Assembly: GCA_964510175.1 (NCBI GenBank)
Contig: CAZEAT010000001.1
Span: 1 to 59,780, forward strand
Length of the DNA: 59,780 nucleotides
Source of the DNA: an uncultured Holosporaceae bacterium
GTDB lineage: Bacteria; Pseudomonadota; Alphaproteobacteria; UBA3830
Reading direction: 5' to 3'
Below are positions 3,051 to 56,117 of the stretch, in pieces. Position 1 is the stretch's first letter. Every line of letters starts with the position of its first letter. The notes beneath the pieces were generated by a model. The model did no database searches and was not told the DNA's origin. It saw only the letters and a list, made by a program, of their open reading frames with translations. The translations under genes were made by a program, and so were the position numbers.

Positions 3051-3062
3051 TCTATCCCTCCA

Positions 3063-3088
3063 CAAAGAAAAAGCCCCTCCTGGGGCTA
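3063..3088 (-). terminator. rho-independent terminator between the nuclease-like gene and int
   Basis: On the minus strand: AGCCCC-agga-GGGGCT followed by TTTTTCTTT. The stem overlaps the stop codon of ORF 3086-3823. Confidence 0.6.
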
Positions 3089-4630: not shown

Positions 4631-5143
4631 ATGGAGAGTAACTGTACGAAATGCAACGAAAACATATACTTTGCCTGCAGAAAAGCGGCGGCATCATACA
4701 ATGACAAATTGAGCAGCCGGGAAAGCGCAGCGGAGCTTCTGGGAATATCTCCATCAACTCTTGCAAATCACGAGTTGGGGATCACCAAAAATGTTCCCGT
4801 TGACACGGTTGTAATGATGGCTGACCTTTACCATGCCCCACAACTGAAAAATCTGTACTGCAAAAATGAGTGTCCCATCGGAAAAGGGCTTCCGGTCGCT
4901 ACGGAGTTTAATAGCCTGGAGGGGATCACCGTAAGGCTCCTGAACAATCTGGATGATGAAGAAATCCGGAATATGAAAAAGAGGCTTTTAAGTATTGCGG
5001 AAGATGGAAAGGTTGATGAACGGGAAAAGGAAGAATTTGCAGTAATCATGAAAAATCTGGACGCTCTCGCTGAAACAATATCCGAATTGCGGATGCTGGC
5101 AGAAAAGTATTCAGAAAGGAGCGGAGGAAATGGAGCTGATTGA
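4631..5143 (+). CDS. XRE-family HTH protein
   Basis: HTH (SSRESAAELLGISPSTLANHELG). ATG 4631 lies 9 nt after GGAGGG; an alternative TTG start is at 4622. Confidence 0.65.
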   Translation: MESNCTKCNENIYFACRKAAASYNDKLSSRESAAELLGISPSTLANHELGITKNVPVDTVVMMADLYHAPQLKNLYCKNECPIGKGLPVATEFNSLEGITVRLLNNLDDEEIRNMKKRLLSIAEDGKVDEREKEEFAVIMKNLDALAETISELRMLAEKYSERSGGNGAD

Positions 5144-5288
5144 CAGGTTGAGGGAGGCTATGGAAAGGGAGTTTGGAATCAAAACGGATGCTGATCTCAT
5201 TGAGGCGGTTGAAAATCATCCGGGAATTGACCTGGGGATATTCGTAACGCCGCTCCAGGAGGAGGCAGTATGCGTAAATGCCATTTAA
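5130..5288 (+). CDS. hypothetical small protein (52 aa)
   Basis: ATG after GGAGGAAA; not in the ORF track because it is under 60 aa; overlaps its neighbours as is typical of this operon. Confidence 0.35.
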   Translation: MELIDRLREAMEREFGIKTDADLIEAVENHPGIDLGIFVTPLQEEAVCVNAI

Positions 5289-6034
5289 AAATAGCCGTTG
5301 TGGTGGCGTCGGCGGTTGTGCTGATGATCCAGGTAAAAGGGGTGATGAATACAGAGATAGAGGCTTTGGAACTATCTAAACCGGAAACGTTAAGAGTGAA
5401 AGAAACAGCATTTCTCCAGGAAGAACCGGAGGAACCAGAGGAACCGGAGGAAACGATCCAGAAATTGACGCCGGAGAGTGAGGGCTTAATCTGGTGCATG
5501 GATTCAGGAAGCGAGGAGGAGCCATTTTCAAGGATGAAAATATCTGCATCCTGGAATCTGGAGGGATTTGTCCCCGTAAGCATTCCGGAGAATTACGCAA
5601 GAAACGGAGGAGAATTTCCGGTAATCGTTCAAATGTATACATACAGCCTATGCAAAGAAAAAGGCATATCCTATCCGTTGATTGTTTCGATGATCGAGTA
5701 CGAGAGTGGGTATAGGTGGTACATCCTGGGAGATTCGGAACGGAGTTACGGCTATATGCAGATACAGCCCCGATATTATCAGGATGTAGCAGACCAGACA
5801 GGGGACGGTGATCTCCTGAACCCCTACACAAACATAGCAACGGGAATAACCATTCTGGAGGAACTTTTCTGGAAATACGGCGAGGTTTCGGATGTTCTTA
5901 TGGTTTACAACTGTGGAGCTGGTTTAGCTTCCGAATTTTGGGATAGCGGAATCTACGAAACAGAGTACACAAAGGAAATTCTGGAGAGAGCTGCCGAGAT
6001 TGAGGAGGTAATCTATGAAAACGTGGGTGATTAA
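5270..6034 (+). CDS. membrane-anchored lytic transglycosylase (SLT-domain) protein
   Basis: N-terminal hydrophobic anchor; SLT-like catalytic region (MIEYESGY..SYGYMQIQP..NPYTNIATGITIL). Confidence 0.65.
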   Translation: MRKCHLKIAVVVASAVVLMIQVKGVMNTEIEALELSKPETLRVKETAFLQEEPEEPEEPEETIQKLTPESEGLIWCMDSGSEEEPFSRMKISASWNLEGFVPVSIPENYARNGGEFPVIVQMYTYSLCKEKGISYPLIVSMIEYESGYRWYILGDSERSYGYMQIQPRYYQDVADQTGDGDLLNPYTNIATGITILEELFWKYGEVSDVLMVYNCGAGLASEFWDSGIYETEYTKEILERAAEIEEVIYENVGD

Positions 6035-6206
6035 AAACTGGATATTGGTTTCTTCTGGATTGCTCCTGACCGCAAGATTCGTAAATGTAGCTTATGAGGA
6101 AAGAGGATATGTCGCTTGTGGCGGCGAATGGCTGACTCTCCCGATCATGATAATGATAAAATTGCTGATTCATGATTTTGCAAAGGAGATTAGACAATGG
6201 CTTTAA
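6015..6206 (+). CDS. small membrane protein, hypothetical
   Basis: SD GAGGAGG; two hydrophobic segments. Confidence 0.45.
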   Translation: MKTWVIKNWILVSSGLLLTARFVNVAYEERGYVACGGEWLTLPIMIMIKLLIHDFAKEIRQWL

Positions 6207-6424
6207 AGTATCAGGGAATCCGGGAACGGATGGAGGCAGACGGTTACAAGGTGGGTGATGATGAATTTCCAAAAATCGTATCATACGCCAAGAGGAAAGC
6301 CGAGACTGCCGGGAAAGATGAAACATATCTTCCGTTGCTTCTGCCAGATGTGATCCGGGAATGGGTGATAAGGCAGACTGTGAACCGGTACAGTTTTGCA
6401 ATGATGGAGATTTTGAGAGATTGA
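6197..6424 (+). CDS. hypothetical protein
   Basis: SD AAGGAG; in-operon ORF of 75 aa. Confidence 0.45.
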   Translation: MALKYQGIRERMEADGYKVGDDEFPKIVSYAKRKAETAGKDETYLPLLLPDVIREWVIRQTVNRYSFAMMEILRD

Positions 6425-6446
6425 AAAGCAGGAGGTAAAAAGGTAA

Positions 6447-7463
6447 ATGGCAAATGCACAGCAGCAACAGCAAAGACAGCAGCAAGGGCAACAACAGCAG
6501 CAAGGAAAACAGGTAACAACGGCTGAATACCTGCAGAACATCCAGAGCGCACTTATGAAACAGATTGCGGAGAAAATAGGGGCAATGCCGGAGGGATTCA
6601 ACAAAGACCGGTTCGTCCTCAACTGTATTACACTGATCCGGGATATGCTGAAAGACAAAAAGAAGCGTGAAAACCTGAACGGAATTTCAGCAGATTCTAT
6701 TGCACTCTGCATGATAAAGGGGGCTTTCCTGGGACTGGACTTTTTAAGCGGAGAATGTTATGCGATCCCGTATGGCGGTGAAATGAATTTCCAGACCGAC
6801 TACAAAGGAGAGATAAAGGTTTGCAAGAAGCACAGCATCCAGCCCATTAAGGACATTTTTGCAAAGGTTGTCCGGGAGGGTGATATGTATGACGAGGGAG
6901 TCGATGATGGAAAGCAGAACCTTACATTCAAGCCAATTCCGTTCAATAACGGGAAAATGATTGGAGCTTTTGCTATCGTCACTTTTAAAGACGGCTCCAT
7001 GCTTTATGAGAGCATGAGTGCGGAGGAAATAGAGGGAGTGCGTAAGAACTACTCAAAGGCGAAAGATAGTGATGCCTGGAAGAACTCCTCCGGAGAAATG
7101 TACCGGAAAACGGTTATTCGTAGGTTGAGTAAATATATCGAAAAGGATTTTGATAAGGTTGAACAACTGATGGCCTATGACGAGGGAGGCGGCGTAGAGT
7201 TCCAGAATGGGCTTCTTTCAACAAGCAGACAGCAGACGGCGGCACTTCCGGATCACGGGGAGCCGGTGAACGTATTTAACCAGATCAAACAGGCACAGCA
7301 GAACCGGAGAGAGCCGGAGCCGGTAAATCAGGGGAGAGATACGCAGTATGATGAAGAATTTGCACAGTTCGAGCAGCAGAACTATGGAAATGGCGGTTAT
7401 GACGGTTACAATCCGGATTTTGATATTCCGGATGAAATAGACGGCGAATTGCCGTTCAGATAA
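6447..7463 (+). CDS. recT: RecT-family single-strand annealing recombinase with poly-Q N-terminus
   Basis: RecT core (CYAIPYGGEMNFQTDYKGEIKV..). Followed by a DUF1351-like gene and an exonuclease gene, as in RecT modules. Confidence 0.8.
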   Translation: MANAQQQQQRQQQGQQQQQGKQVTTAEYLQNIQSALMKQIAEKIGAMPEGFNKDRFVLNCITLIRDMLKDKKKRENLNGISADSIALCMIKGAFLGLDFLSGECYAIPYGGEMNFQTDYKGEIKVCKKHSIQPIKDIFAKVVREGDMYDEGVDDGKQNLTFKPIPFNNGKMIGAFAIVTFKDGSMLYESMSAEEIEGVRKNYSKAKDSDAWKNSSGEMYRKTVIRRLSKYIEKDFDKVEQLMAYDEGGGVEFQNGLLSTSRQQTAALPDHGEPVNVFNQIKQAQQNRREPEPVNQGRDTQYDEEFAQFEQQNYGNGGYDGYNPDFDIPDEIDGELPFR

Positions 7464-7478
7464 GAGGAGGATAACGGG

Positions 7479-8531
7479 ATGAATGAGATTAGCGTAGTAG
7501 TAAACCAGAAACCGGGTACAATTTCCTGGAATTTTGAGGAAATCAAGAAACGTCTGAATGAGGAGCTGGAGGTATACCAGAAAACAGCCTATACGGATGA
7601 TACTATCAAGACCGCAAAGGGTGATGTTGCTGATCTCCGGAAATTGGCAAAAGCCATTGAGGATAGGAGAAAAGAAGTAAAAGAAAAGTGCCTGGAACCT
7701 TATGCACCTATCGAGGCACAGGCGAAAGAGCTTATTGACCTGATAGAGAAGCCGATCCAGGCTATCAACGATCAGGTCAAAGACTATGAAAAACGCCGTA
7801 AAGAAAAGGCCAGGGCTGAAATCAATGCCTACTGGACGCAGAAAGCGGAAAAGCTCCCGGAGGATATACGGGAAAAGGCGAAAAAGGCTATCTATGATGA
7901 CCGGTGGGAAAATGCAACAGCTACAAAAAAGAGCTGGAGGGAGGGCATTGAAAACGGCATTCAGAAAATCCTGGATGAAATCGGCACAATCAAATCTTTT
8001 GCCAGTGAATTTGAGGAGGATATGCTGACCGTATACAAGATTGATCTTTCTCTCCAGAAAGCTATCCAGAAAATGAATGAGCTGAACGCTCAAAAGGAAA
8101 GGATTCTGGAGCAGGAGAGGAAACGCCGGGAAGCTGAGGAGGCAGAACGGAAACGCCAGGAGGAGGAAAAACAGCGCCGGGAGGAATTGGCGAGACAGAA
8201 AGCCCAGGAAGAACAGCAGCAGACCGAAACTCCGAAAATTCCGGAAAAGCAGAGCTTTGTTCCCGTAGGCGGTATACCTACCGGAAGAATCCCACAGCCA
8301 CAGGCGGCGGCTCAAATGGGACACCAGGGGACGCCCGTAAACAGTGGGATTTCTGGAGGATATGTACCACACCCGGAGGAACCGGTAAAAATGGGACAGA
8401 ATCCGGAACCGGCAACAAAGGCATATCCCAACGGAGAAATGCGTACAGTCCGCATTCTGGGGACAAAGGAGCAGATCACAAAGATTTTAAACTATATCCG
8501 GTTTACCGGAGCGACTTACGAGGAGGTATAG
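7479..8531 (+). CDS. DUF1351-like phage protein (RecT-associated)
   Basis: N-terminal sequence (ISVVVNQKPGTISWNFEEIKKRL..YTDDTIKTAKGDVADLRKL) and its position next to recT. Confidence 0.55.
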   Translation: MNEISVVVNQKPGTISWNFEEIKKRLNEELEVYQKTAYTDDTIKTAKGDVADLRKLAKAIEDRRKEVKEKCLEPYAPIEAQAKELIDLIEKPIQAINDQVKDYEKRRKEKARAEINAYWTQKAEKLPEDIREKAKKAIYDDRWENATATKKSWREGIENGIQKILDEIGTIKSFASEFEEDMLTVYKIDLSLQKAIQKMNELNAQKERILEQERKRREAEEAERKRQEEEKQRREELARQKAQEEQQQTETPKIPEKQSFVPVGGIPTGRIPQPQAAAQMGHQGTPVNSGISGGYVPHPEEPVKMGQNPEPATKAYPNGEMRTVRILGTKEQITKILNYIRFTGATYEEV

Positions 8532-8534
8532 AGC

Positions 8535-9365
8535 ATGAAGTTGACAGCAGAGAATTATTATTCGCAGGAGGCAAATTTTGAGTATATGTCCGTTTCACAG
8601 TTCAAGGATTTTGCCGGAACCTATGGACAGGTAAGGTGTGAAGCCCTGGCAATGGCGAAACTCCGGGGAGAATACCAGGAGGAGAAAACAACCGCTTTGT
8701 TGGTTGGAAGCTATGTAGATGCTCATTTTGAGGGCACTCTGGATAAATTCAAAATGGAGAATCCGGAGATATTCACCAAAACATCACAGAAGAAATACCC
8801 GGATGATCCGGAAAAGTGGGAGCTTCTGTCAGATTATAAACAGGCAAACAATATTATTGCCAGAATAGAGCGTGACGAGTTCTTTATGGCTCATATGTCC
8901 GGAGAAAAACAGGTTATCATGACCGGTGAGTTGTTCGGGCTTCCCTGGAAGATAAAAATTGATTCATACCTGGAGGGTGTTGCAATCGTAGATTTAAAGG
9001 TCATGGCATCCCTGACAAAACATGAATGGGTGAGAGATATAGGTTATCTGGATTTTGTACGGTATTGGGGCTATGACATTCAGGCTGCGGTATATCAGGA
9101 GATCGTGTACCAGAATACCGGAAAGCGGCTTCCTTTCTACATTGCCGGTGCCAGCAAAGAAAAGGCTACCAACATTAAGATTGTCCATGTCCAGGACAAT
9201 TATTTGCAGGAAGCATTGAACATTGTTAAATACAACATCGAGAGGGTAAAACAGGTCAAGTATGGTGAGGTTGCCCCTGACAGATGCGGAAATTGTGACT
9301 ACTGCCGGGAAACAGAGGTATTGACTGCCCCTATTACGATTGCTGATCTGGTGGCTGACATTTGA
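8535..9365 (+). CDS. PD-(D/E)XK exonuclease (RecE/Cas4-like partner of RecT)
   Basis: KIDSY..IVDLK nuclease motif and a C-terminal Cys cluster (CGNCDYC). Confidence 0.7.
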   Translation: MKLTAENYYSQEANFEYMSVSQFKDFAGTYGQVRCEALAMAKLRGEYQEEKTTALLVGSYVDAHFEGTLDKFKMENPEIFTKTSQKKYPDDPEKWELLSDYKQANNIIARIERDEFFMAHMSGEKQVIMTGELFGLPWKIKIDSYLEGVAIVDLKVMASLTKHEWVRDIGYLDFVRYWGYDIQAAVYQEIVYQNTGKRLPFYIAGASKEKATNIKIVHVQDNYLQEALNIVKYNIERVKQVKYGEVAPDRCGNCDYCRETEVLTAPITIADLVADI

Positions 9366-16636: not shown

Positions 16637-17242
16637 ATGAGCGAAGCAGCAGAAAAGAGTTTACCGGAAGATTTACCGGAAAAGAGAATAGAGGTTCTCA
16701 CCATGAGGGTAGGTGACATTAAGACCGGATTTGGCAATCCCCGGAAGATTGGAAAGAAGAAACGGGAGGAGCTGAAAAGGTCCCTGGAGCAGTTCGGGGA
16801 TTTCGGTATCTTCCTGATTGATGAACAGGACAACGTAATTGCCGGGAACATGCGGCAAGCGATTCTGAATGAAATAAATCCGGATCAGGAAGTCACCTGC
16901 AAACGCCTGATAGGATATACCGAGGCAGAGTTACGGGCAATCAATATCAAAGACAATACCCACGCCGGGGAGTGGGATATGGATTTGCTGGCCGACTGGA
17001 CGGCTGATCTGAATATGGATTTAGGTCTTGACTTGCAGGAGGGAAGCCCAGGAGAGCGGAAGATTAAGGAAATGGAGCTTCTCAACTATGAGAAGTACAA
17101 TTATGTGATGATCGTCTGCAAGAATGAAATGGATTTTAACGAGCTTTCCCGGAGGTTAGGTATTGACGGGGCAAAGGTCAAGATCAATGACAAAAAGAAA
17201 ATTAAAGCAAGGGCGGTGTGGTATCATGAGTCAGGATTGTAA
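16637..17242 (+). CDS. ParB N-terminal-domain (ParB-like nuclease) protein
   Basis: GNPRKI and VIAGNMRQ motifs of the ParB/Srx fold. Confidence 0.65.
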   Translation: MSEAAEKSLPEDLPEKRIEVLTMRVGDIKTGFGNPRKIGKKKREELKRSLEQFGDFGIFLIDEQDNVIAGNMRQAILNEINPDQEVTCKRLIGYTEAELRAINIKDNTHAGEWDMDLLADWTADLNMDLGLDLQEGSPGERKIKEMELLNYEKYNYVMIVCKNEMDFNELSRRLGIDGAKVKINDKKKIKARAVWYHESGL

Positions 17243-17948
17243 AACCATAGGAATTTACGTTCCGTCCTATAAGCGGTATGACCGGATCATGACCTGGAAC
17301 ATCCTGAATGATTGTACCTACGTTGTGAGGGAATCGGAGGAGGAGGCGTACCGGGCAGCCGGGATAACAAAGATACTGACCGGCCCGGATGAAGAAATAA
17401 ACAGTCTGGCAAAGGTCAGACAGTGGATCATCGACAATACCCCGGAGGATATTGTTATCCAGTGTGACGATGATATTTCCATGATGATATACAAGGGCAA
17501 AAACAATAAGGTTGAAATCACCGACAAAGACACCATAGATATGGAGTTTGAGAGGGTTGCACAAATCCTGGAGGATTTACGCCTGGGATTTGCTTCATGC
17601 ACCATGACCGGGGACGTCCGGAAATTCAATGCCGAGTTTCTGTTTAAGGGAATCACCGGAGGAATTTGCTGGTTCAATAAAGAGCATCTGAAAAGCCGGT
17701 TCGATAATATGACCTACATTAAAGAGGACACCGACTTTGTTCTGCAGGAGCTTCTCCAGAATCGGATCATTATCATACCTGATTATTTCGGTATGCAGAA
17801 TCAGTACGATAAGAACGCCGGAGGAAATAACGAGAATAAGAACCTACGGGCATTGAATCAGACAGTGGAGTACATGAAAAACAAGTGGGGGAAATATTAC
17901 GATCACAATTTCAGGACGAACCAGAGCCGTATAAATGTCAAAAGATAA
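17226..17948 (+). CDS. hypothetical protein, possibly a GT-A-like transferase
   Basis: IGIYVPSYKRYD..VIQCDDDI pattern resembles a Rossmann-like beta-strand plus a DxD motif. The assignment is weak. Confidence 0.3.
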   Translation: MSQDCKTIGIYVPSYKRYDRIMTWNILNDCTYVVRESEEEAYRAAGITKILTGPDEEINSLAKVRQWIIDNTPEDIVIQCDDDISMMIYKGKNNKVEITDKDTIDMEFERVAQILEDLRLGFASCTMTGDVRKFNAEFLFKGITGGICWFNKEHLKSRFDNMTYIKEDTDFVLQELLQNRIIIIPDYFGMQNQYDKNAGGNNENKNLRALNQTVEYMKNKWGKYYDHNFRTNQSRINVKR

Positions 17949-38777: not shown

Positions 38778-39041
38778 ATGAGAAGTTTTCGTATCAGCCA
38801 GAATGATATGCTGTCACATGACAGTATAGAAAAATCGTTCCTGGTACCCTCCCGTGGAAAGAGGAGCAGACCGGACGTGAAAGCCGTTCTTGACAACCTG
38901 GAAAATGAAATCCGGATAGTTCAGGAAATGCTCCTGAATGGAGAATTTACGCCTACCGATCATGAGGCAGTAAAAATCAATGAAAGGAATTACCAGAAAG
39001 TCCGGAAAATTGTAAAACCGACTATAAATATGAGCAGGTGA
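38778..39041 (+). CDS. DGR reverse transcriptase, N-terminal fragment (frame-shifted relative to the core)
   Basis: ..SRGKRSRPDVKAVLDNLENEIRIVQEMLLNGEF..KVRKIVKP is the typical N-terminal region of DGR-type RTs. It stops at 39039-39041. Confidence 0.7.
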   Translation: MRSFRISQNDMLSHDSIEKSFLVPSRGKRSRPDVKAVLDNLENEIRIVQEMLLNGEFTPTDHEAVKINERNYQKVRKIVKPTINMSR

Positions 39042-40141
39042 TCCACCACGTTGTTGTCCAGGCAATACGGCCTGGAATAGAAACCGGGATGTATCAATAT
39101 GTTTTAGGTTCCATACCAGGCAGAGGCCAGCACATGGGAGCAAAGCGGATTGAGAAATGGATAAGGACAGACCCGGCAAATACAAAGTATGTTCTGAAAA
39201 TGGATATACGACATTTCTTTGAAAGCGTGGATCATGATATTTTGAAAGCCTGGCTCAAAAAGAAATTCCGGGATGCTTTTGTCCTGGATTTGCTATTCCT
39301 GATAATTGATGCCATTGATACGGGACTACCGCTCGGCTATTATACAAGCCAGTGGTTCGCTAATTTTCTTTTACAACCTTTAGACCACTACATCAAGGAA
39401 AATCTAAATGTGAAATACGATGGTAGGTACATGGATGATATAACTTGCTTTGGTCGAAACAAGAAAGAGCTGCATAGGGTCCGGGAGGCAATAAACTCCT
39501 ACCTGAATGAAGAATTGCATCTCACTATGAAAGGGAATTGGCAGATATTCCGGTTTGAGTACGAAGTGGAAGAATACGCCATAGAGTGTCAGACCATGAG
39601 GGAGCTGAAAGCTCTGGAGGACGATCTGGTAAAAGCAAGAATTAGGCATAAAATGAAAACTCACAAAAACCGCTGGAAAATATTTATTAAGGTGGCGAGT
39701 GTGAGGAGTAAAACAGATAAGCTGGAGCGGCTCCTGACAAAATACCGGGGAAAGAGTGAGATACTCACGATGGTATACGGCAGACCGCTTGATTTTATGG
39801 GCTTTGAATTTCATAGAAACAGAACGATCATGAGGAAAGGTATCATGATCCGTTTGAACAGAAAAGCGAAGCAGGTGTCTAAGCAGGAGAAAATCAATCC
39901 GAAAGATGCCGCTTCGCTTTTGTCCTCTATGGGATGGGTGAAACATACGGACACATACGGGATGTATGAGGAGCGTATCAAGCCTATTGTCAATATAAAG
40001 AAGCTGAAAAAGATTGTCAGCAAAAACCAGAAACGTAAGAACCAGGAGGAAAAGGATAAGCAAAGGAGGCAGGAAAAGGAAAATGGAAATCAGGTGGAAA
40101 ACAGTAACGGGATCACAGGAGGAACGCCCGGAAGTGATTGA
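39038..40141 (+). CDS. DGR reverse transcriptase, core (motifs 1-7, YMDD)
   Basis: VIHHVVVQAI, MDIRHFFESVDH, GLPLGYYTSQWFANF and GRYMDDITCFG motifs; very basic C-terminal tail. Confidence 0.85.
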   Translation: MIHHVVVQAIRPGIETGMYQYVLGSIPGRGQHMGAKRIEKWIRTDPANTKYVLKMDIRHFFESVDHDILKAWLKKKFRDAFVLDLLFLIIDAIDTGLPLGYYTSQWFANFLLQPLDHYIKENLNVKYDGRYMDDITCFGRNKKELHRVREAINSYLNEELHLTMKGNWQIFRFEYEVEEYAIECQTMRELKALEDDLVKARIRHKMKTHKNRWKIFIKVASVRSKTDKLERLLTKYRGKSEILTMVYGRPLDFMGFEFHRNRTIMRKGIMIRLNRKAKQVSKQEKINPKDAASLLSSMGWVKHTDTYGMYEERIKPIVNIKKLKKIVSKNQKRKNQEEKDKQRRQEKENGNQVENSNGITGGTPGSD

Positions 40142-43991: not shown

Positions 43992-44032
43992 TTTCCCATT
44001 GAAAAAATTTTTTAAGAAAAGCAAAAATAGGC

Positions 44033-44062
44033 TTGACGTAACGCACTGTAGTGCGCTAAAGT
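44033..44062 (+). promoter_or_regulatory. promoter P4 of accessory operon 1
   Basis: TTGACG (44033-44038), 18 nt, TAAAGT (44057-44062). Part of the ~98-nt cassette duplicated at 50827-50925. Confidence 0.55.
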
Positions 44063-44115
44063 ATAGCCATGGAACACACCAAAGGAAAGTGAACACACGA
44101 AACGGGAGGTATATC

Positions 44116-45120
44116 ATGAAATATTTTAAGAATGTAAAGAGCTTTGAGGATTTAAAAAATCAGTTTAGAGAGTTGGCAAGAAAAAATCATCCGGACGCTG
44201 GCGGCGATCCTGAAATAATGAAAGCAATCAATCAAGAGTACGATCAGTTATTTCCGGTTTGGAAGAAACGCCATAACATGTCAACGGGAGAGTCCACAAC
44301 CGAAACAGCAGATACCTTTAGAAATGAGTTTTATACACAAAACGGCTGGAAAGGCAGCAACCATGACTGGAACCGCAGTTTGAAAGAAGTCGCACAGATT
44401 GTCAGAACATATGTTAAGGAGCAGTACCCCACATATAAATTCAGTGTTCGTACAGAATACGCTTCTATGTGCCAGGAACTCCATGTTGATTTAAAAGAAA
44501 GCCCTATCGAAATTTATAAGACTTTCGAGGAGCTTACAGATGATGATAAGCACCGCTTAATTAGCAAAATGGATCATAACTGGTTGTTCAAACTTACATC
44601 GTGGAATGACAGCGAATTGAAAGCAGAGTTTGAACGGATATGGAATGAGAACGGCAATTTTTATAAATGCCTGAATGAAGCCACACAGGCGGTTATCGAG
44701 GATGTAGATGCTTTCGTAAAGTCCTACAATTACGAAGATTGCGACGGTATGATTGATTACTTCCATGTTGATTTTTACTACTTCGGATGCGCACAGAATA
44801 ACGGGAGAAACATCAAAGTTGTTCCCAAAACTGCCAGAATCAAAAATAAACCAGAAGTAACAGCGCCGGCCACCACAAAGGAAGATAAAACCAGTAATGA
44901 AAAGGTAGAGGTTGCTGAAATCGAGCAGGAGTATGAAATCAAAGAAACTAAGCATACAAAAACCAATGAAGTGATCTTTGTGGTAAAGATTGTTCGCACA
45001 CTCACCAGAGAGGAATATAAAAAGGTTGCTGAAAAAATGAACCAGCTTGGAGGGTATTACTCAAAATTTGTTCATGGATTTGTGTTTAAAGAAAATCCGA
45101 CACCATTGTTGGTTTCATAG
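44116..45120 (+). CDS. J-domain (DnaJ-like) protein with a large uncharacterised C-terminal region
   Basis: J-domain with HPD motif (FEDLKNQFRELARKNHPDAGGDPEIMKAINQEYDQL). ATG 44116 after GGGAGG. Confidence 0.7.
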   Translation: MKYFKNVKSFEDLKNQFRELARKNHPDAGGDPEIMKAINQEYDQLFPVWKKRHNMSTGESTTETADTFRNEFYTQNGWKGSNHDWNRSLKEVAQIVRTYVKEQYPTYKFSVRTEYASMCQELHVDLKESPIEIYKTFEELTDDDKHRLISKMDHNWLFKLTSWNDSELKAEFERIWNENGNFYKCLNEATQAVIEDVDAFVKSYNYEDCDGMIDYFHVDFYYFGCAQNNGRNIKVVPKTARIKNKPEVTAPATTKEDKTSNEKVEVAEIEQEYEIKETKHTKTNEVIFVVKIVRTLTREEYKKVAEKMNQLGGYYSKFVHGFVFKENPTPLLVS

Positions 45121-46621: not shown

Positions 46622-46954
46622 GTGAGGTATAAGATTCTTTACTGGAAGTGTAAAAAGAAGCTGAAAAAGCAGATGGAGGCAGTTTTCAGGCTAACAAAGG
46701 AAAGATGGGAAAACCGGAGTGAGATAAAACGCCTCCGGAAAATGGTTGCATCACTGGAGGATGGGTATGTGGTGGAGTGGTGCGACAACTGCAAAAACCA
46801 GATTGTTATGTTATGGAATCCTGGAAAAGACGGTCTTTTAGCATATTGTCCGGTGTGCGGAAGTGAAATGATGTTATGCGATTCGTGCCACTGGAAATGC
46901 GACTATGATTTCGGGAATGATGATTGCATCGGAAAGAGGTTCAGCGGAAAATGA
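46622..46954 (+). CDS. Cys-rich Zn-ribbon protein
   Basis: CDNCKN..CPVCGSEMMLCDSCHWKC. Start uncertain (GTG 46622 or ATG 46673). Confidence 0.45.
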   Translation: MRYKILYWKCKKKLKKQMEAVFRLTKERWENRSEIKRLRKMVASLEDGYVVEWCDNCKNQIVMLWNPGKDGLLAYCPVCGSEMMLCDSCHWKCDYDFGNDDCIGKRFSGK

Positions 46955-48303
46955 AAGGACAATTAAGTTTATTCAACGAGGAGTACATAAAGGATTCAGA
47001 CTGCACAAAAGAAACGCCGGTGATATATGGGAAGCCAGACGATCCGATCTATGGCACAGGTACCAGGATAACACCCAGATTAAAAGGCCGGGAAGATTCG
47101 GAACATATGAAAAATATTTTGCTTCCTGAATTGTTGCCGCTGGAGGAGTACGATCTGATTGCAATTTTGCTATCAGGAGGAAAAGACAGTATCGCATGTT
47201 ATTATAAGCTCCTGGAGCTTGGGGTGCCAAAGGAAAAAATGGAGTTCTGGCATCACGATATAGACGGAGGACATCCGAGCCGCCGTATGGACTGGCGATG
47301 TACACATAATTATGTTAAGTCTTTTTCGGAAGTGGAGGGAGTGCCACTTCGGTTATCCTGGAGGATAAACGGATTTTTCGGTGAGTTATATCGTGTTGGA
47401 GCATCGGAGCCGGTAGAATGGATGGAACCAGATACCGGAGAAATTATGCAATGCAAGCTATCTTCCAATTACCTGAAATGCAAGGAATTAAAAGAACAAA
47501 GTGCGGATGAAATGGAGGAGCTGTTAAAACAATACGGCTACCGCATGAAATTTCCTGCAAAGACGGGAGATTTGAGCCGTAGGTGGTGCAGTGCTTATCT
47601 GAAAATTATGGTTGCTGATTCCGTTATGAGTAATTTAAGCAGTCTGGGGAAACTGGAGGAAATCGGAGGGAAAAGGGGTAAGTTCCCGGCAAAGGGAAGC
47701 ACCCACCAGGGGCGTTGGTGCAGCGGAAACTTGAAAGCGGCGGTCCAGGACAGTGTAACATCGAATCTGGAAAAGACCAGGCAAAACGTAAAAGTCCTTG
47801 TTGTTTCCGGAGAACGTCGTGGAGAATCTGCCGGGAGATCAAAATATAATGAAATGGAGATTCACCGGACAAACGCAGAAAAGAAAGCGCACAGGATAGT
47901 GCATCAGTGGAGGCCGGTAATTGATTATTCAGAAAAGGATGTTTGGGAGGTTCTGAAAAGGCATAATGTGAATCCTCACCCTTGTTATCGGGCCGGATGG
48001 AACCGCTGTTCATGCGCTATGTGTATCTTCTCTACCCCGAAACTGTTTGCCGGAATAAAAGAGCTATATCCAGAAGATTTCGACTTATTAAAACAAGATG
48101 AATCAATTTTAGGCTTTACCCTGGATAACAAGTGCGACCTGGAAACATTCATAAAAGGGGCTGAATCGTGTGTATATCATGGCGATCTCCAGGCAATAAG
48201 GAGCCTTGTCACAGGGGAGTTTGCTGTTGATGATGTATATGTAAAGGGACGCTGGATGTACCAGGCAGGAGCTTTTCACGGGGCAGAGGGAGGCCCATGT
48301 TAG
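46951..48303 (+). CDS. PP-loop ATP pyrophosphatase of the PAPS-reductase/DndC-like family
   Basis: SGGKDS PP-loop (AILLSGGKDSIACYY). C-terminal WRPVIDYSEKDVW..CYRAGWNRCSCAMC. Internal 30-aa duplication. ATGA coupling to the upstream gene. Confidence 0.7.
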   Translation: MKGQLSLFNEEYIKDSDCTKETPVIYGKPDDPIYGTGTRITPRLKGREDSEHMKNILLPELLPLEEYDLIAILLSGGKDSIACYYKLLELGVPKEKMEFWHHDIDGGHPSRRMDWRCTHNYVKSFSEVEGVPLRLSWRINGFFGELYRVGASEPVEWMEPDTGEIMQCKLSSNYLKCKELKEQSADEMEELLKQYGYRMKFPAKTGDLSRRWCSAYLKIMVADSVMSNLSSLGKLEEIGGKRGKFPAKGSTHQGRWCSGNLKAAVQDSVTSNLEKTRQNVKVLVVSGERRGESAGRSKYNEMEIHRTNAEKKAHRIVHQWRPVIDYSEKDVWEVLKRHNVNPHPCYRAGWNRCSCAMCIFSTPKLFAGIKELYPEDFDLLKQDESILGFTLDNKCDLETFIKGAESCVYHGDLQAIRSLVTGEFAVDDVYVKGRWMYQAGAFHGAEGGPC

Positions 48304-48311
48304 GAGGAGAA

Positions 48312-49247
48312 ATGAAAATCGGGTTGCATGATGCAGAAAAAGAGGTATTTAAACACGGAAAGTCTTTTCCTAATTACGCATTGATGAAAATTGCCGCATA
48401 CCATAAATCGCAAGGGGATCATGTGGAGTGGTGGAATCCGTTGAAAAGGTATGACAAGGTTTACAGCAGCAAGGTATTCGATTTTACTCCGAATGATCCA
48501 TATTTGCCGGATAATGCGATCAGAGGAGGAACCGGCTATCTGGATTTGCCTGTCAATAATACGCTACCTGCAGAAATAGATAATATGTTTCCAGATTATA
48601 GCCTTTACCCAGAGTGCGATTACGCAATAGGCTATATCACGAGAGGGTGTCCTAATAAATGCCGGTGGTGCGTGGTTCCCAGGAAAGAGGGGAAAATCAG
48701 ACTGTACCGAACATGGAAAGACCTTGTAAGGCAAGATTCGGATAAGCTCGTGCTGATGGATAATAATATTTTGGCTTGTGAATATGGAATAGAGCAGTTA
48801 GAGGAGCTTTCGGGAAGCGGTTATCAGATTGACTTGAATCAGGGGATGGATGCTAGGCTGGTAAACGACCGGATAGCTGAAATTCTTTCACGGCTTAAAT
48901 GGATAAGATTTATACGCTTTAGTTGCGATCAAAAGAGCCAGATAGAGCCGATAAAAAATACGGTGGATTTACTCGGAAAATATGGAGTGAGGCCATACAG
49001 AATTTTTATATATATTCTCGTAACAAAGAATGTCCAGGACGCAGCGGATCGGGTGGAGGCTTTGAAAGGGTACAAAGCTATCAATCTTTATGCACAGGCT
49101 GAACGGAATGAAAGAATAGGAATTATTCCAAATTCTGAACAGTTGGAGTTCCAACAACGCTATGTTTACGGAGGTTGCTACCGAAAGGAAACCTGGGAGG
49201 AATACTGCCAGCGTAGAAAATTGGTTTTTCGGCAGGAGGGCTTATGA
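48312..49247 (+). CDS. radical SAM enzyme
   Basis: CX3CX2C cluster (GCPNKCRWCVV); SD AGGAGGAG. Confidence 0.7.
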   Translation: MKIGLHDAEKEVFKHGKSFPNYALMKIAAYHKSQGDHVEWWNPLKRYDKVYSSKVFDFTPNDPYLPDNAIRGGTGYLDLPVNNTLPAEIDNMFPDYSLYPECDYAIGYITRGCPNKCRWCVVPRKEGKIRLYRTWKDLVRQDSDKLVLMDNNILACEYGIEQLEELSGSGYQIDLNQGMDARLVNDRIAEILSRLKWIRFIRFSCDQKSQIEPIKNTVDLLGKYGVRPYRIFIYILVTKNVQDAADRVEALKGYKAINLYAQAERNERIGIIPNSEQLEFQQRYVYGGCYRKETWEEYCQRRKLVFRQEGL

Positions 49248-49633
49248 TACTTGACTGTTTAATTGTGAAAGAGAAGTGGCTGAACATGATACTTGACGGG
49301 TACAAGTCTCTGGAGATCAGGGGAGGCCGGACGCATAAAAGGGGACTTATCGGGCTGATCCAGAGCGGAACCGGGGAAGTAAAGGGGATTGCATCCCTGA
49401 CAGACTGCCAGGAGCTGAATAAAAAAGATTTTGAACGTCTCCAGGGATTCCACCAGATAAAAGACCGGGAGTGGGAGGAGCTTCCCTACAAAAAGGTTTA
49501 CGGGTGGAAATTGGAGGAGCGCAGGAGGTTGAAAACGCCGGTTAGATATAATCATCCCAGAGGGGCGGTAATTTGGGTAAAGGTTGATATTCCGGAGGAG
49601 GTATTGTATGGCAAAGAAAAATATGATAAATAA
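49244..49633 (+). CDS. ASCH-domain (PUA-like) protein
   Basis: IKEKWLNMILDGYKSLEIRGGRTHKRG..GWKLEE.. is typical of the ASCH beta-barrel. ATGA overlap with the upstream gene. Confidence 0.6.
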   Translation: MILDCLIVKEKWLNMILDGYKSLEIRGGRTHKRGLIGLIQSGTGEVKGIASLTDCQELNKKDFERLQGFHQIKDREWEELPYKKVYGWKLEERRRLKTPVRYNHPRGAVIWVKVDIPEEVLYGKEKYDK

Positions 49634-50390
49634 GAGCTGTGAAAATTGCGGATGCCTGAACAGAAATATATCAAAGAAAGGCCGGATAGAAAACAGGGAA
49701 TTATTGTATTATGGGTGCAGTAAGGCTTACGGGGGATTCTCAACAGCTTTTTCCCTGGATAATAAATGTGAGGGATGTTGCGGAGGCTGGGAGGCTACTA
49801 TGGAGGAAAAGGCGAAAAATGCTGGGATGTCAAAAGAGCTGGGAGCGGAAATACGAAAAAGCCTTGATCGGTGGGAGTATCTTCAAGTGCATGGAGGCTC
49901 TGATCCAAATTGGGAAGATGGCAGCAATATGAATCTGGTAAGAAATCATGTCTTTTACTGGAAAAGCCAGTGCAAGGCATTGTTGCTTCCAGAAGATTAT
50001 CCGGAGGAGTATTTTCTGGAAACTCCACCGGAGGTAGATAATAAATATATGGCTAGAGTTGAGGAAATCCGGGAAAGGTCAAAGAAAAGCCTGGAGGTAT
50101 ACAAAGCTGATTCTGATTACCAGTTTATTTTGCAGGCTGTAAACAGGCTTACAAAGCAGCAAAACGAACAGACACACGCAAGCTCTTTCCTCCGGTATGT
50201 TTCCGGTCTGGAGGATTCCATCCGGAATGATAGGTTGGTGGAAATGCGGAAACACGAAAACCCGGATCGTTATCTTGACAGCTTCCGGGAATGTCGAAAA
50301 CGAATAGAGGAAATTCTGGGTAAACCTGAACCGGAGCCGGTTCTTCCGATGGGTCAGTTGTCTTTATTTGATTTATACGGATTGACATGA
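49608..50390 (+). CDS. hypothetical protein with an N-terminal Cys cluster
   Basis: CENCGC..C..CEGCCGGW; ATG after GGAGGAGG. Confidence 0.45.
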   Translation: MAKKNMINKSCENCGCLNRNISKKGRIENRELLYYGCSKAYGGFSTAFSLDNKCEGCCGGWEATMEEKAKNAGMSKELGAEIRKSLDRWEYLQVHGGSDPNWEDGSNMNLVRNHVFYWKSQCKALLLPEDYPEEYFLETPPEVDNKYMARVEEIRERSKKSLEVYKADSDYQFILQAVNRLTKQQNEQTHASSFLRYVSGLEDSIRNDRLVEMRKHENPDRYLDSFRECRKRIEEILGKPEPEPVLPMGQLSLFDLYGLT

Positions 50391-50432: not shown

Positions 50433-50759
50433 TTGAGAGCAGTAGATTTTATCGTGAAACACATAGAAGATCATGGAATGACACAGGCACAGGCGGCGGC
50501 AGTGGTCGGATGGAGCCGTCAAAATTTATGGGATAAGCTGAATAATCGGAACCCACGGTTTAATACCATGCTTCACATACTAACAGCTTTTGGATATGAG
50601 TTACATGTGGTGCGTAAGGATGGGCTATCACCGGATTGTTTTGACGAGAGAGATTTTTTTGAGGTGGCAAAAGAAAAAAATATATATTATGACGATCTGG
50701 AGGATTTAATTGCCGCCATGGGGCATAAGTTAATAATTGAGAAAAAGCCGGAAGAATAA
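50433..50759 (+). CDS. HTH (XRE-like) protein, last gene of accessory operon 1
   Basis: HTH (HGMTQAQAAAVVGWSRQNLWDKLNN); TTG start after GGGAGG. Confidence 0.55.
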   Translation: MRAVDFIVKHIEDHGMTQAQAAAVVGWSRQNLWDKLNNRNPRFNTMLHILTAFGYELHVVRKDGLSPDCFDERDFFEVAKEKNIYYDDLEDLIAAMGHKLIIEKKPEE

Positions 50760-50808
50760 GTTTTCCGGCTTATATTTTTTTGACGTCCTGGGAGGGCGTC
50801 TTTTTTTA
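50746..50808 (+). terminator. tandem rho-independent terminators
   Basis: AGCCGGAA pairs with TTCCGGCT (50746-50770), followed by a T-run. A second hairpin, GACGTCC..GGGCGTC (50782-50800), is followed by T7. Confidence 0.75.
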
Positions 50809-50841
50809 TTTTAAAATTTTTCAAAAAAAGCAAAAATAGGC

Positions 50842-50871
50842 TTGACGTAACGCACCGTAGTGCGCTAAAGT
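50842..50871 (+). promoter_or_regulatory. promoter P5 of accessory operon 2
   Basis: TTGACG (50842-50847), 18 nt, TAAAGT (50866-50871). Duplicate of the P4 cassette. Confidence 0.55.
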
Positions 50872-50925
50872 ATAGCCATGGAACACACCAAAGGAAAGCG
50901 AACACACGAAACGGGAGGTTATATT

Positions 50926-55046: not shown

Positions 55047-55333
55047 AAAGAGGAGATTTTAACAGAAAGCAGTATGACAGAGTGCGGAAGATGGATCACC
55101 GCCAGATGCAGGATTTTTTCAACCAGGTATATGATTCTGGGTATGTTGACGGGAAAAAGGAATCCCAGGAGGAGAGGCAGGTCCCGGAACTGATCGGACT
55201 GGAGGAGAAGTTGCAGGAAATCCGGGGAATAGGAGGAGCGAAAGCCAGGGCGATATGTGAGGCGGTAAAAGATTTTCTGAAAAGAAAGGTATCGGGAGCC
55301 GATGAAAACAGTTCTGCAGTATCCAGGGAGTAA
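55043..55333 (+). CDS. helix-hairpin-helix-containing small protein
   Basis: GTG start (GTGA overlap); HhH-like LQEIRGIGGAKARAI. Confidence 0.4.
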   Translation: MKRGDFNRKQYDRVRKMDHRQMQDFFNQVYDSGYVDGKKESQEERQVPELIGLEEKLQEIRGIGGAKARAICEAVKDFLKRKVSGADENSSAVSRE

Positions 55334-56117
55334 ATGGAATATATCACCGGAGATTGTGAAAAGAATACCAGAACATCATACATATTGTGAGCCTTATTTC
55401 GGAAGTGGTGCGGTATTTTTCAGCAAATCTCCAAGTGCTATTGAGCTTATAAATGACCTGGATAATAATGTGCCGACATTGTTCCGTTGCATCCGGGATG
55501 ATCCGGAGAAGCTGGCCGGAATTGTGGTGGCTATACCTTACAGCCGTTTTGAATACGAAAGAGCCTTTTATGCTGATGATGAAACAGACGATTTTTTGAG
55601 GGCAGCAAACTTCCTGATTACATGCTGGCAAGGTCACGGATTCAGGACAAACGGCTATCGGGTAGGGTGAAAAAATGATGTGCATGGTAGGGAGAGTATG
55701 TACGCCCTCCGGAATTGGTACAATCTTCCTGGAAAGATACTGGAGGTTGCTGAACGTCTCCGGTGCGTCCAGATAGATAACAGGCCGGCTCTGGAGGTTA
55801 TAAAACGGTTCAATTATCCGGATGTTTTCATGTATATTGATCCTCCCTATCTCTGGAAAACCAGGACGGCAAAACAGTACCGGCATGAAATGACGGATGC
55901 AGACCATGAACAGCTCCTCCGGGAGCTTCTTGAAACTAAGGCAATGGTGATGATAAGCGGCTATGAATCGGACATGTACAATGATATTCTGAAAGGCTGG
56001 CATAAAGAGCAATTCAAGTCACATGCCGAATATGGAGGTAACAGGATAGAAACTGTCTGGATGAATTACGAAAGGCAGCTTACTATACAAGAATTTCAGC
56101 AACAAAAATTATTTTAA
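55302..56117 (+). pseudogene. dam: Dam-family (D12 class) N6-adenine DNA methyltransferase interrupted by an in-frame TGA at 55668-55670
   Basis: N-terminal LQYPGSKW..EPYFGSGAVFF (AdoMet motif) in ORF 55302-55670. DPPY motif (YIDPPYL) in ORF 55680-56117. Both ORFs are in the same frame and separated only by a TGA where the family normally has Trp (..GYRVG*KNDV..). Confidence 0.7.

Follow-up and report, generated by a model that had tools for sequence, protein, structure and literature searches.

A probable mosaic accessory operon with a facultative PAPS-reductase-family and radical SAM gene pair in a temperate siphovirus

Do five consecutive, tightly packed phage genes encode one dedicated nucleic-acid modification pathway, or are they accessory genes that happen to share an operon? 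The genes in question, here called A to E, lie on the forward strand at 46622-50390 of a 59,780-nucleotide stretch (hereafter the window) of contig CAZEAT010000001.1 from the GenBank assembly GCA_964510175.1, and encode a Zn-ribbon-like protein (A), a PP-loop protein of the PAPS reductase family (B), a radical S-adenosylmethionine (SAM) protein (C), an ASCH-domain protein (D) and a Cys-rich protein (E; Table 1). A sequence-only reading had proposed them as an undescribed five-gene modification module. The packed genes and their motifs are present in the open reading frame (ORF) listing, the start/stop overlaps fall at 46951 (ATGA, A/B), 49244 (ATGA, C/D) and 49608 as it had claimed, and its PP-loop, radical SAM and ASCH domain calls are borne out by profile searches. 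Analysis of related loci indicated that the genes probably form part of a mosaic accessory operon with a facultative B-C pair, rather than a dedicated five-enzyme pathway.

Conservation of the five genes and pairing of B with C

Three sets of loci were compared, one around homologues of C (40 viral loci and 80 loci from species-representative genomes), one of 80 viral loci around homologues of B, and one of a dozen contigs for two B homologues. A, D and E are all present at only one locus, L001, from a phage that is about 92% identical to the window at the nucleotide level across the whole region. L001 carries A-C-D-E and no B; homology to the window ends at 46914 and restarts at 48313, an indel of about 1.4 kb, so exactly B is present in one phage and absent from the other. 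No homologues of A, D or E were found in the 118 radical-SAM-anchored or 92 B-anchored loci beyond L001, the core of E at locus L116 and a fragment at locus L168, and at the nucleotide level the region has no match among 50,697 phage records. The sequence-only reading had itself made the module depend on co-conservation in relatives, which for A, D and E fails beyond the near-identical L001. The five genes thus do not form a conserved unit, as A, D and E are confined to L001, B is dispensable and the core of E occurs elsewhere; A, D and E are probably separate accessory proteins.

A and E have no family match in the Pfam, PHROG, NCBIfam and PADLOC scans, PADLOC gives no match for A, C, D or E, and D carries an ASCH domain (PF04266, 26.4 bits against a Pfam gathering score of 21.2). 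The conserved core of E spans residues 67-260, and the Cys-rich N-terminal segment of about 65 aa is found only in the window phage and L001; most of the 90 homologues of E are about 190 aa long and lack it. Homologues of the E core adjoin DUF5688, DUF4942 and helicase genes and are widespread in mobile elements, and at L116 the core is fused to an NrS-1-type primase-polymerase domain, so that from its contexts the core domain looks replication- or mobile-element-related. A Cys-rich domain shared by the N-terminus of E, a 54-aa ORF cluster (c87) located 3' of radical SAM genes at other loci and the linker of a radical SAM fusion protein (P0331) was considered and rejected, as phmmer found no relationship among them.

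Homologues of B at 70-98% identity are very abundant and mostly stand apart from radical SAM genes. The radical SAM gene is absent from 76 of the 80 viral loci with a B homologue, and together with the clean absence of B from L001 this argues against an obligate B-C pair. One B homologue stands alone in a TraG-bearing conjugative element, others adjoin a C5 methyltransferase or a ParB_N protein, and the commonest neighbours of B are helix-turn-helix (HTH) proteins and a 449-aa ParB_N protein (15/61 distinct contexts).

Analysis of the neighbourhoods of C revealed that the association of PP-loop and radical SAM genes pointed out in the sequence-only reading does recur. Among 109 distinct contexts drawn from 115 loci around C homologues, a PAPS-reductase-family ORF is the commonest neighbour within three genes of the radical SAM gene (21 contexts), followed by a C5 methyltransferase (11), another methyltransferase (9) and Dam (7); within 8 kb, such an ORF is found at 33 of 118 loci. 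All 35 nearby PAPS-reductase ORFs lie on the same strand as the radical SAM gene, 31 of them upstream and four downstream, with 14 immediately preceding it, whereas ORFs of three methyltransferase clusters are distributed evenly around the radical SAM genes (28 upstream, 28 downstream). Dereplication at 90% radical SAM identity left 97 clusters, of which 21 have a PAPS reductase upstream only, 4 downstream only and 72 none, and the 21:4 bias gives a two-sided binomial value of about 9e-4 by our own arithmetic. The pair spans at least two PAPS-reductase subtypes, namely the 450-aa B type and a type of about 300-330 aa with RWCC...CxxC, and has been found in Lachnospiraceae, Clostridia, Bacteroidales, Desulfovibrio, Anaerovorax and Thermosipho prophages as well as in LoVEphage, a cultured Bacteroides phage. 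Among closely related radical SAM genes (77-78% identity), some have the PAPS-reductase partner and others do not. Judged from gene order, the coupling of B and C appears real but facultative, and not that of an obligate pathway.

Several individual loci around the radical SAM gene are worth recording. At L131, three PAPS-reductase-family ORFs stand in a row directly upstream of it (positions ~5000-8000). At L116 (1089-12229), in a Clostridia prophage, a 1,970-aa protein combining an N6-methyltransferase with an SNF2/ResIII helicase is followed by a PAPS reductase, the radical SAM protein, a C5 methyltransferase, a small ORF and the fusion of the E core with the primase-polymerase, giving an anti-restriction-flavoured neighbourhood. 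At three loci (L045, L046 and L048, at ~10.6-12.1 kb), B is followed first by a 169-aa ORF and next by the radical SAM gene, in a gene string that also has Tad2-like (anti-Thoeris), YopX and DUF3850 (PUA-like) genes and is consistent with an anti-defence region. A sub-family of 335-aa radical SAM proteins with 45% identity to C (P0122-P0175; L030, L031 and L035) is found on many gut metagenome contigs of 96-108 kb, usually with a PAPS reductase gene of about 325 aa directly before it and with divergent genes, including a ParA-like ATPase, after it.

Protein families of B and C

B matches the Pfam family PAPS_reduct (PF01507, 41.8 bits against a gathering score of 22.5), with only the C-terminal half of the domain aligned, and the phage 'PAPS reductase' family phrog_424 (E 2.3e-31, residues 57-395). 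The SGGKDS PP-loop, which is degenerate in CysH, is invariant in 54 homologues of B. The C-terminal part contains CYRAGWNRCSCAMC and a Cys cluster of the form CX7CXCXXC, and the protein ends in GGPC, as do all 120 among the homologues listed. A repeat of about 44 aa (KFPAK-x-RWCS-x2-LK-x-DSV-x-SNL) runs through the B family (seen also in P0105, P0083, P0084 and P0120), with two copies in forms of 450 aa and three in variants of about 490 aa. These motifs place B in the PAPS_reduct / PP-loop ATP pyrophosphatase superfamily and predict a DndC/SspD-like Fe-S PP-loop protein. In APS reductase and DndC, a [4Fe-4S] cluster is bound by a CC...CXXC pattern; the Cys pattern of B is a variant of this one and compatible with such a site.

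The best PADLOC matches of B are BrxP (4e-14), DndC (1e-7) and SspD (1e-6). These proteins, which act on DNA in conflict systems and represent the nearest profile families, share with B the PF01507 domain, an intact SGGKDS PP-loop and a C-terminal Cys cluster. However, only about 90-150 residues of B align with them, and the DndC model TIGR03183 gives B 27.9 bits against a cut-off of 290.4, so that equivalog membership failed. DndC has a Cys-Cys dyad, whereas B has RWCS instead, twice, and lacks DUF4007. In addition, DndC, SspD and BrxP sit in host defence islands with an NTPase, whereas B is phage-encoded and has no adjacent P-loop NTPase. Both a PAPS-reductase-domain protein and a DndD/SspC/BrxC NTPase are needed for phosphorothioate synthesis (PMC12914056). 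No ATPase of this type was found in the operon or among the window ORFs of at least 300 aa, each of which has another assignment (recombinase, RecT, DnaC-like, terminase, portal, head, tape measure, tail, reverse transcriptase or endolysin).

B also resembles the stand-alone PAPS-reductase-like proteins of phages and mobile elements (phrog_424; IbrA-like), which likewise lie in variable phage regions, often near ParB_N, methyltransferase and HTH genes. We know of no biochemical activity for any stand-alone phage protein of this kind. In experiments, acquisition of a PAPS-domain gene enabled a Vibrio phage to escape Dnd (bioRxiv 10.1101/2021.05.05.442762), and a counter-defence role has been proposed for Aca-regulated PAPS-reductase-like members (PMC13551039). 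The B subtype is distinguished from the Vibrio PAPS-Dam protein by its two- or three-copy internal repeat and its invariant C-terminal GGPC. A debated claim, discussed in PMC10853773, holds that DndC itself uses SAM via its cluster.

C matches phrog_9298, a 'radical SAM domain protein' (E 5e-76), and Pfam PF04055 (Radical_SAM) at 20.3 bits, under the gathering score of 29.5. Its start is most likely the ATG at 48312 rather than position 48297, where the longest reading begins, because AGGAGGAG precedes this ATG and all homologues begin with MKIGL or MNIGL there; with this start, 8 nt separate B from C and the two genes show no overlap. The three Cys residues of the CX3CX2C motif (C113, C117 and C120) are invariant in 121 sequences. 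In the AlphaFold2 model (pLDDT 84), a small alpha/beta domain at the N-terminus precedes a beta/alpha barrel, that is, a partial TIM barrel, and the best matches of the model in the PDB and BFVD are radical SAM enzymes. The conserved motif and the modelled fold place C in the radical SAM superfamily. In the Foldseek search against the PDB, nothing reached E <= 1e-3 (top TM 0.35-0.40; the best solved match is the radical SAM enzyme BlsE, E 1.4e-3, TM 0.35), and no reaction was assigned. The family is large, with at least 8,000 proteins found by a word-index search and, in an exhaustive search, 3,603 clusters formed at 50% identity. It ranges over Bacteroides phages, contigs of about 100 kb, the Clostridium phage phiCT453B, a Marinitoga virus and, among archaeal viruses, those of Methanomassiliicoccales; the Bacteroides and Clostridium phages include cultured ones. 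Its annotation is always generic, and to our knowledge no member of phrog_9298 has been characterised.

The best named fold and sequence matches of C are the methylthiotransferases MiaB, RimO and MtaB and the COG1032 B12-binding-like radical SAM enzymes. Like C, they have a small N-terminal alpha/beta domain before the radical SAM barrel and a cluster loop of the form GC-x3-C-x-(F/W)C-x-VP, although these matches are marginal (E 0.03, TM up to 0.57). Unlike MiaB and RimO, C has no conserved Cys in residues 1-100, where the auxiliary cluster would be bound, and no TRAM domain; it also has no B12 motif, is only 311 aa long and belongs to a phage-restricted family. The model thus suggests a methylthiotransferase/B12-like fold in a large phage family, and C as a MiaB/RimO-type methylthiotransferase was rejected on the missing auxiliary Cys residues and TRAM domain and on its score against TIGR00089 (14.8 against 251).

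Three observations concern the architecture of C homologues. P0331 (812 aa) fuses a radical SAM domain (1-306) to a Cys-rich segment, a ParB_N domain (560-642) and an HTH_ParB domain; DNA methyltransferases are the typical fusion partners of the ParB N-terminal fold in phages (PMC12704722). In P0338, a radical SAM domain is fused to an ABC-type ATPase domain, possibly through a gene-call or assembly artefact. Locus L012 carries two divergent radical SAM paralogues nearly adjacent to each other, at 6622-7554 and 7923-8921.

Thymidine hypermodification (phages M6 and ViI) and the QueC/QueE 7-deazaguanine pathway also employ phage radical SAM enzymes, and QueC is a PP-loop protein as well. M6, ViI and deazaguanine phages are absent from the 16 phage records matched by C, B and C have no QueC or QueE match in NCBIfam or Pfam, and no 5-hydroxymethyluracil kinase, aGPT-Pplase, DpdA/TGT, FolE or QueD was found among the scanned ORFs, the small ORFs having been scanned in part. 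Both pathways were rejected for lack of homology and of partner genes among the scanned ORFs. The absence of DndA/D/E, DpdA/TGT and QueD/FolE stated in the sequence-only reading agrees with these scans, which covered every ORF of at least 300 aa and part of the small ORFs and found no DndD/SspC/BrxC-type ATPase, cysteine desulfurase, TGT/DpdA or QueD/FolE.

The operon and the phage that carries it

A to E belong to one transcription unit of about 12 genes and 6.7 kb (~44.1-50.8 kb), since a repeated promoter/5' untranslated region (5'UTR) precedes it and two strong terminator-like hairpins close it at 50745-50800 (Table 1). The 107-nt repeat consists of a sigma-70-like promoter (TTGACG, 18-nt spacer, TAAAGT), a 5'UTR in which GAACACAC is duplicated, and GGGAGGT as Shine-Dalgarno sequence, with an inverted repeat (CGCAC-N4-GTGCG, 5-bp arms) inside the promoter spacer, and is kept at both positions in L001. 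The HTH protein encoded at the end of the operon has weak matches only (a PHROG regulator at E 1e-5, and Pfam HTH families that miss their gathering scores). By its Aca-like position it is a candidate autoregulator. PAPS reductases and LPD29 genes occur in phage anti-defence operons regulated by HTH proteins of the Aca (anti-CRISPR-associated) type (PMC13551039). Like these operons, the one in the window has a strong promoter with a short inverted repeat, small accessory genes that include LPD29 and PAPS reductase genes, and an HTH gene at its 3' end. Unlike them, it contains no known anti-CRISPR or other validated anti-defence gene, its HTH protein is assigned to no Aca family, and it is long (12 genes).

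The window is essentially one temperate siphovirus, whose host is most plausibly a gut Clostridia bacterium of Lachnospiraceae type, with the five genes in the post-lysis accessory region. The gene order starts with the serine recombinase, followed by RecT, a PDDEXK exonuclease, a DnaC-like loader and RusA, and next come a ParB-like gene and a TAGT-type glycosyltransferase gene. The structural block then runs from terminase through portal, head and tape measure to the tail genes, past which come a diversity-generating-retroelement-type reverse transcriptase, the endolysin and about 16 kb of small forward-strand accessory genes that contain A to E.

Two further features of this phage that had been flagged in the sequence-only reading are present. 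The first is a ParB-like gene that overlaps a TAGT-type glycosyltransferase gene, a second and separate candidate DNA-modification pair; the scanned early genes include no TET/JBP or dCMP hydroxymethylase. The second is an interrupted Dam gene, split by a single in-frame TGA at 55668-55670, exactly at the conserved Trp of its homologues (VGWKNDV). The rest of the frame is intact and over 257 aa shares 47% identity with an uninterrupted homologue; the TGA may reflect a nonsense mutation (TGG>TGA, making a pseudogene), a variant introduced by sequencing, or recoding.

Table 1. Positions of the features discussed, numbered from the first nucleotide of the window
Feature	Position	Strand	Description
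Serine recombinase	1302-3065	-	Start of phage gene order
ParB-like gene	16637-17242	+	phrog_620/498
TET-associated glycosyltransferase (TAGT)	17163-17948	+	Pfam TAGT 36.3 bits (gathering 27.5); phrog_842 'beta-glucosyl-HMC-alpha-glucosyltransferase'
Reverse transcriptase	39038-40141	+	Diversity-generating-retroelement type; phrog_1423, E 1e-81; between tail genes and endolysin
Promoter/5'UTR repeat copy 1	44004..44110	+	107 nt; likely operon start
LPD29-domain gene	44116..45120	+	First operon gene; LPD29 38.2 bits (gathering 27); weak J-domain-like N-terminus
A	46622-46954	+	110 aa, 8 Cys, Zn-ribbon-like; no family match
B	46951-48303	+	450 aa from ATG; PAPS-reductase-family PP-loop protein; presence/absence cassette
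C	48312-49247	+	311 aa, phage radical SAM protein, CPNKCRWC; longest ORF from 48297
D	49244-49633	+	129 aa, ASCH (PUA-like) domain
E	49608-50390	+	260 aa; CENCGC and CEGCCGG
Small HTH protein gene	50433..50759	+	Last operon gene
Tandem intrinsic-terminator-like hairpins (two)	50745..50800	+	Operon end
Promoter/5'UTR repeat copy 2	50813..50919	+	96% identical to copy 1; heads next operon
Dam gene	55302-56117	+	Interrupted by one in-frame TGA

Readings of the gene string and their significance

We consider it probable that the operon is a mosaic of accessory genes in which B and C form an optional pair. The genes are independently exchangeable, most plausibly with counter-defence or nucleic-acid-modification functions, and B and C can evidently each work without the other. 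Both proteins may act on DNA, as the neighbouring methyltransferases do. DNA is suggested as the substrate by the methyltransferase-rich neighbourhoods, in which radical SAM genes sit among C5, N6/N4 and Dam methyltransferases, by the ParB_N fusion of P0331 and by the N6-methyltransferase/SNF2 and C5 methyltransferase genes around the pair at L116. In the proposed mechanism, B would use ATP to adenylate its target or would relay a persulfide via its Cys-rich C-terminus, and C would perform a SAM-radical step; where both are present they would cooperate, with B as activator or sulfur relay and C providing the radical step. The outcome would be a modification, or mimicry of one, through which the phage escapes modification-dependent defences of its host, for instance Dnd, Ssp or BREX type 4. 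Such a counter-defence role is compatible with the Dnd escape of the Vibrio phage and with the claim that DndC uses SAM.

Several points weigh against this reading. The structure model of B is poor (pLDDT 63), and its Foldseek matches are weak and all to generic PP-loop enzymes, with no reaction assigned. Neither the B nor the C model has a close solved relative, and sequence and profile searches of both proteins against PDB sequences gave marginal matches only. The Vibrio anti-Dnd protein is a PAPS-Dam fusion of a subtype other than that of B. The Aca-like view would hold by analogy only, given an HTH protein below the Pfam gathering thresholds and repeat arms of 5 bp. ASCH/PUA domains and the methylthiotransferase-like fold are classically linked to RNA, and no partner gene that would define the substrate was found among the scanned ORFs. 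Finally, 72 of the 97 radical SAM clusters left after dereplication lack a nearby PAPS reductase, and a radical SAM gene is missing from 95% of B-type loci.

Since most loci are unpaired, the co-location of B and C could reflect a shared hot spot, in which two functionally unrelated genes occupy a variable region together with methyltransferases. Each gene is usually found without the other, as in L001, which keeps C and lacks B, and the neighbourhoods are highly variable, with 109 distinct contexts at the 115 C loci. However, the order bias argues against pure chance. The PAPS reductase outranks every methyltransferase cluster as a neighbour of C, is always co-directional with it, often overlapping or only a few bases apart, and keeps its upstream preference after dereplication and across different PAPS-reductase subtypes and different phyla, with no such preference among the methyltransferases. 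We regard a hot spot as an unlikely explanation of the pair.

It is rather unlikely that B and C form an undescribed two-enzyme system which installs a sulfur-containing or radical-derived modification in phage DNA. Such a system might produce base thiolation, methylthiolation or a phosphorothioate made without the DndD/SspC/BrxC ATPase, with B serving as an ATP-dependent activator and, through its invariant C-terminal Cys, as a sulfur relay that would replace the auxiliary cluster missing in C.

An RNA target, in which B, or B together with C, would thiolate or methylthiolate host or phage RNA such as tRNA and thereby tune translation or escape tRNA-targeting defences, is in our view decidedly unlikely. 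The weak fold matches of B include the tRNA thiolases TtuA, NcsA, MnmA and TilS, the best named matches of C are tRNA methylthiotransferases, the ASCH/PUA-like D adjoins C, and LoVEphage has an RtcB gene near its radical SAM gene. However, the fold and sequence matches are all marginal (E 0.007-0.5, TM 0.15-0.57), C falls far short of the NCBIfam MiaB/RimO cut-off and lacks the three-Cys auxiliary cluster and TRAM domain, and the neighbours are DNA methyltransferases and ParB_N proteins, with the DNA enzymes BrxP, DndC and SspD nearest to B.

A single dedicated pathway of all five proteins, with A as a Zn-ribbon targeting factor, B as activator, C as the radical SAM enzyme, D as an ASCH reader and E as a Cys-rich cofactor protein, is very improbable. 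The tight packing with start/stop overlaps in one transcription unit would fit it, as would the small Cys-rich ORFs that are frequent just 3' of radical SAM genes elsewhere, the Cys-rich segment fused in P0331 and a Zn-ribbon gene of LoVEphage located between the PAPS reductase and radical SAM genes. Against it stand the confinement of A, D and E homologues to L001, the dispensability of B in this closest relative, the commonness of small Zn-ribbon ORFs in phage early regions and the negative phmmer comparison of E, c87 and P0331.

That B is a true PAPS reductase (CysH) serving as an auxiliary metabolic gene to boost host sulfate assimilation, as its Pfam match and the PHROG label 'auxiliary metabolic gene' would have it and as prophage surveys read such genes (PMC11318856; bioRxiv 10.64898/2026.02.18.706556), can hardly be right and was rejected because of its scores (32.6 against 154, 31.7 against 235, 23.3 against 165 and 17.4 against 254 bits for the NCBIfam cysH/APS/PAPS-reductase models), its motifs (half-aligned Pfam domain, canonical SGGKDS, extra repeats and Cys clusters) and its genomic context (beside methyltransferase, ParB and HTH genes in phage and conjugative regions rather than sulfur-metabolism genes, with BrxP as the best defence match).

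The claim of an undescribed five-gene module is thus overstated. The accompanying statement that the set matches no known pathway is likewise not supported, as it overlooks the known, abundant family of phage PAPS-reductase-like proteins with its anti-Dnd precedent (bioRxiv 10.1101/2021.05.05.442762; PMC13551039). B is a new member of this biochemically uncharacterised family, and C is a member of a catalogued, uncharacterised PHROG. The ordered pairing of PAPS-reductase and radical SAM genes appears to be a modest new comparative-genomic observation; no paper on it was found in the phage literature, where a Thermus phage paper has both genes at unrelated loci.

Phage 'PAPS reductases' are among the commonest accessory genes of gut prophages and are routinely labelled as sulfur metabolism, whereas the sole functional datum for them points to counter-defence. 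As a caution, the tight packing of genes in phage accessory regions should not be taken as evidence of a pathway. The directional gene order links two families and offers a testable pair for a new DNA/RNA modification or anti-phosphorothioate-defence mechanism, for which the window phage and L001, which lacks B, provide a natural isogenic contrast.

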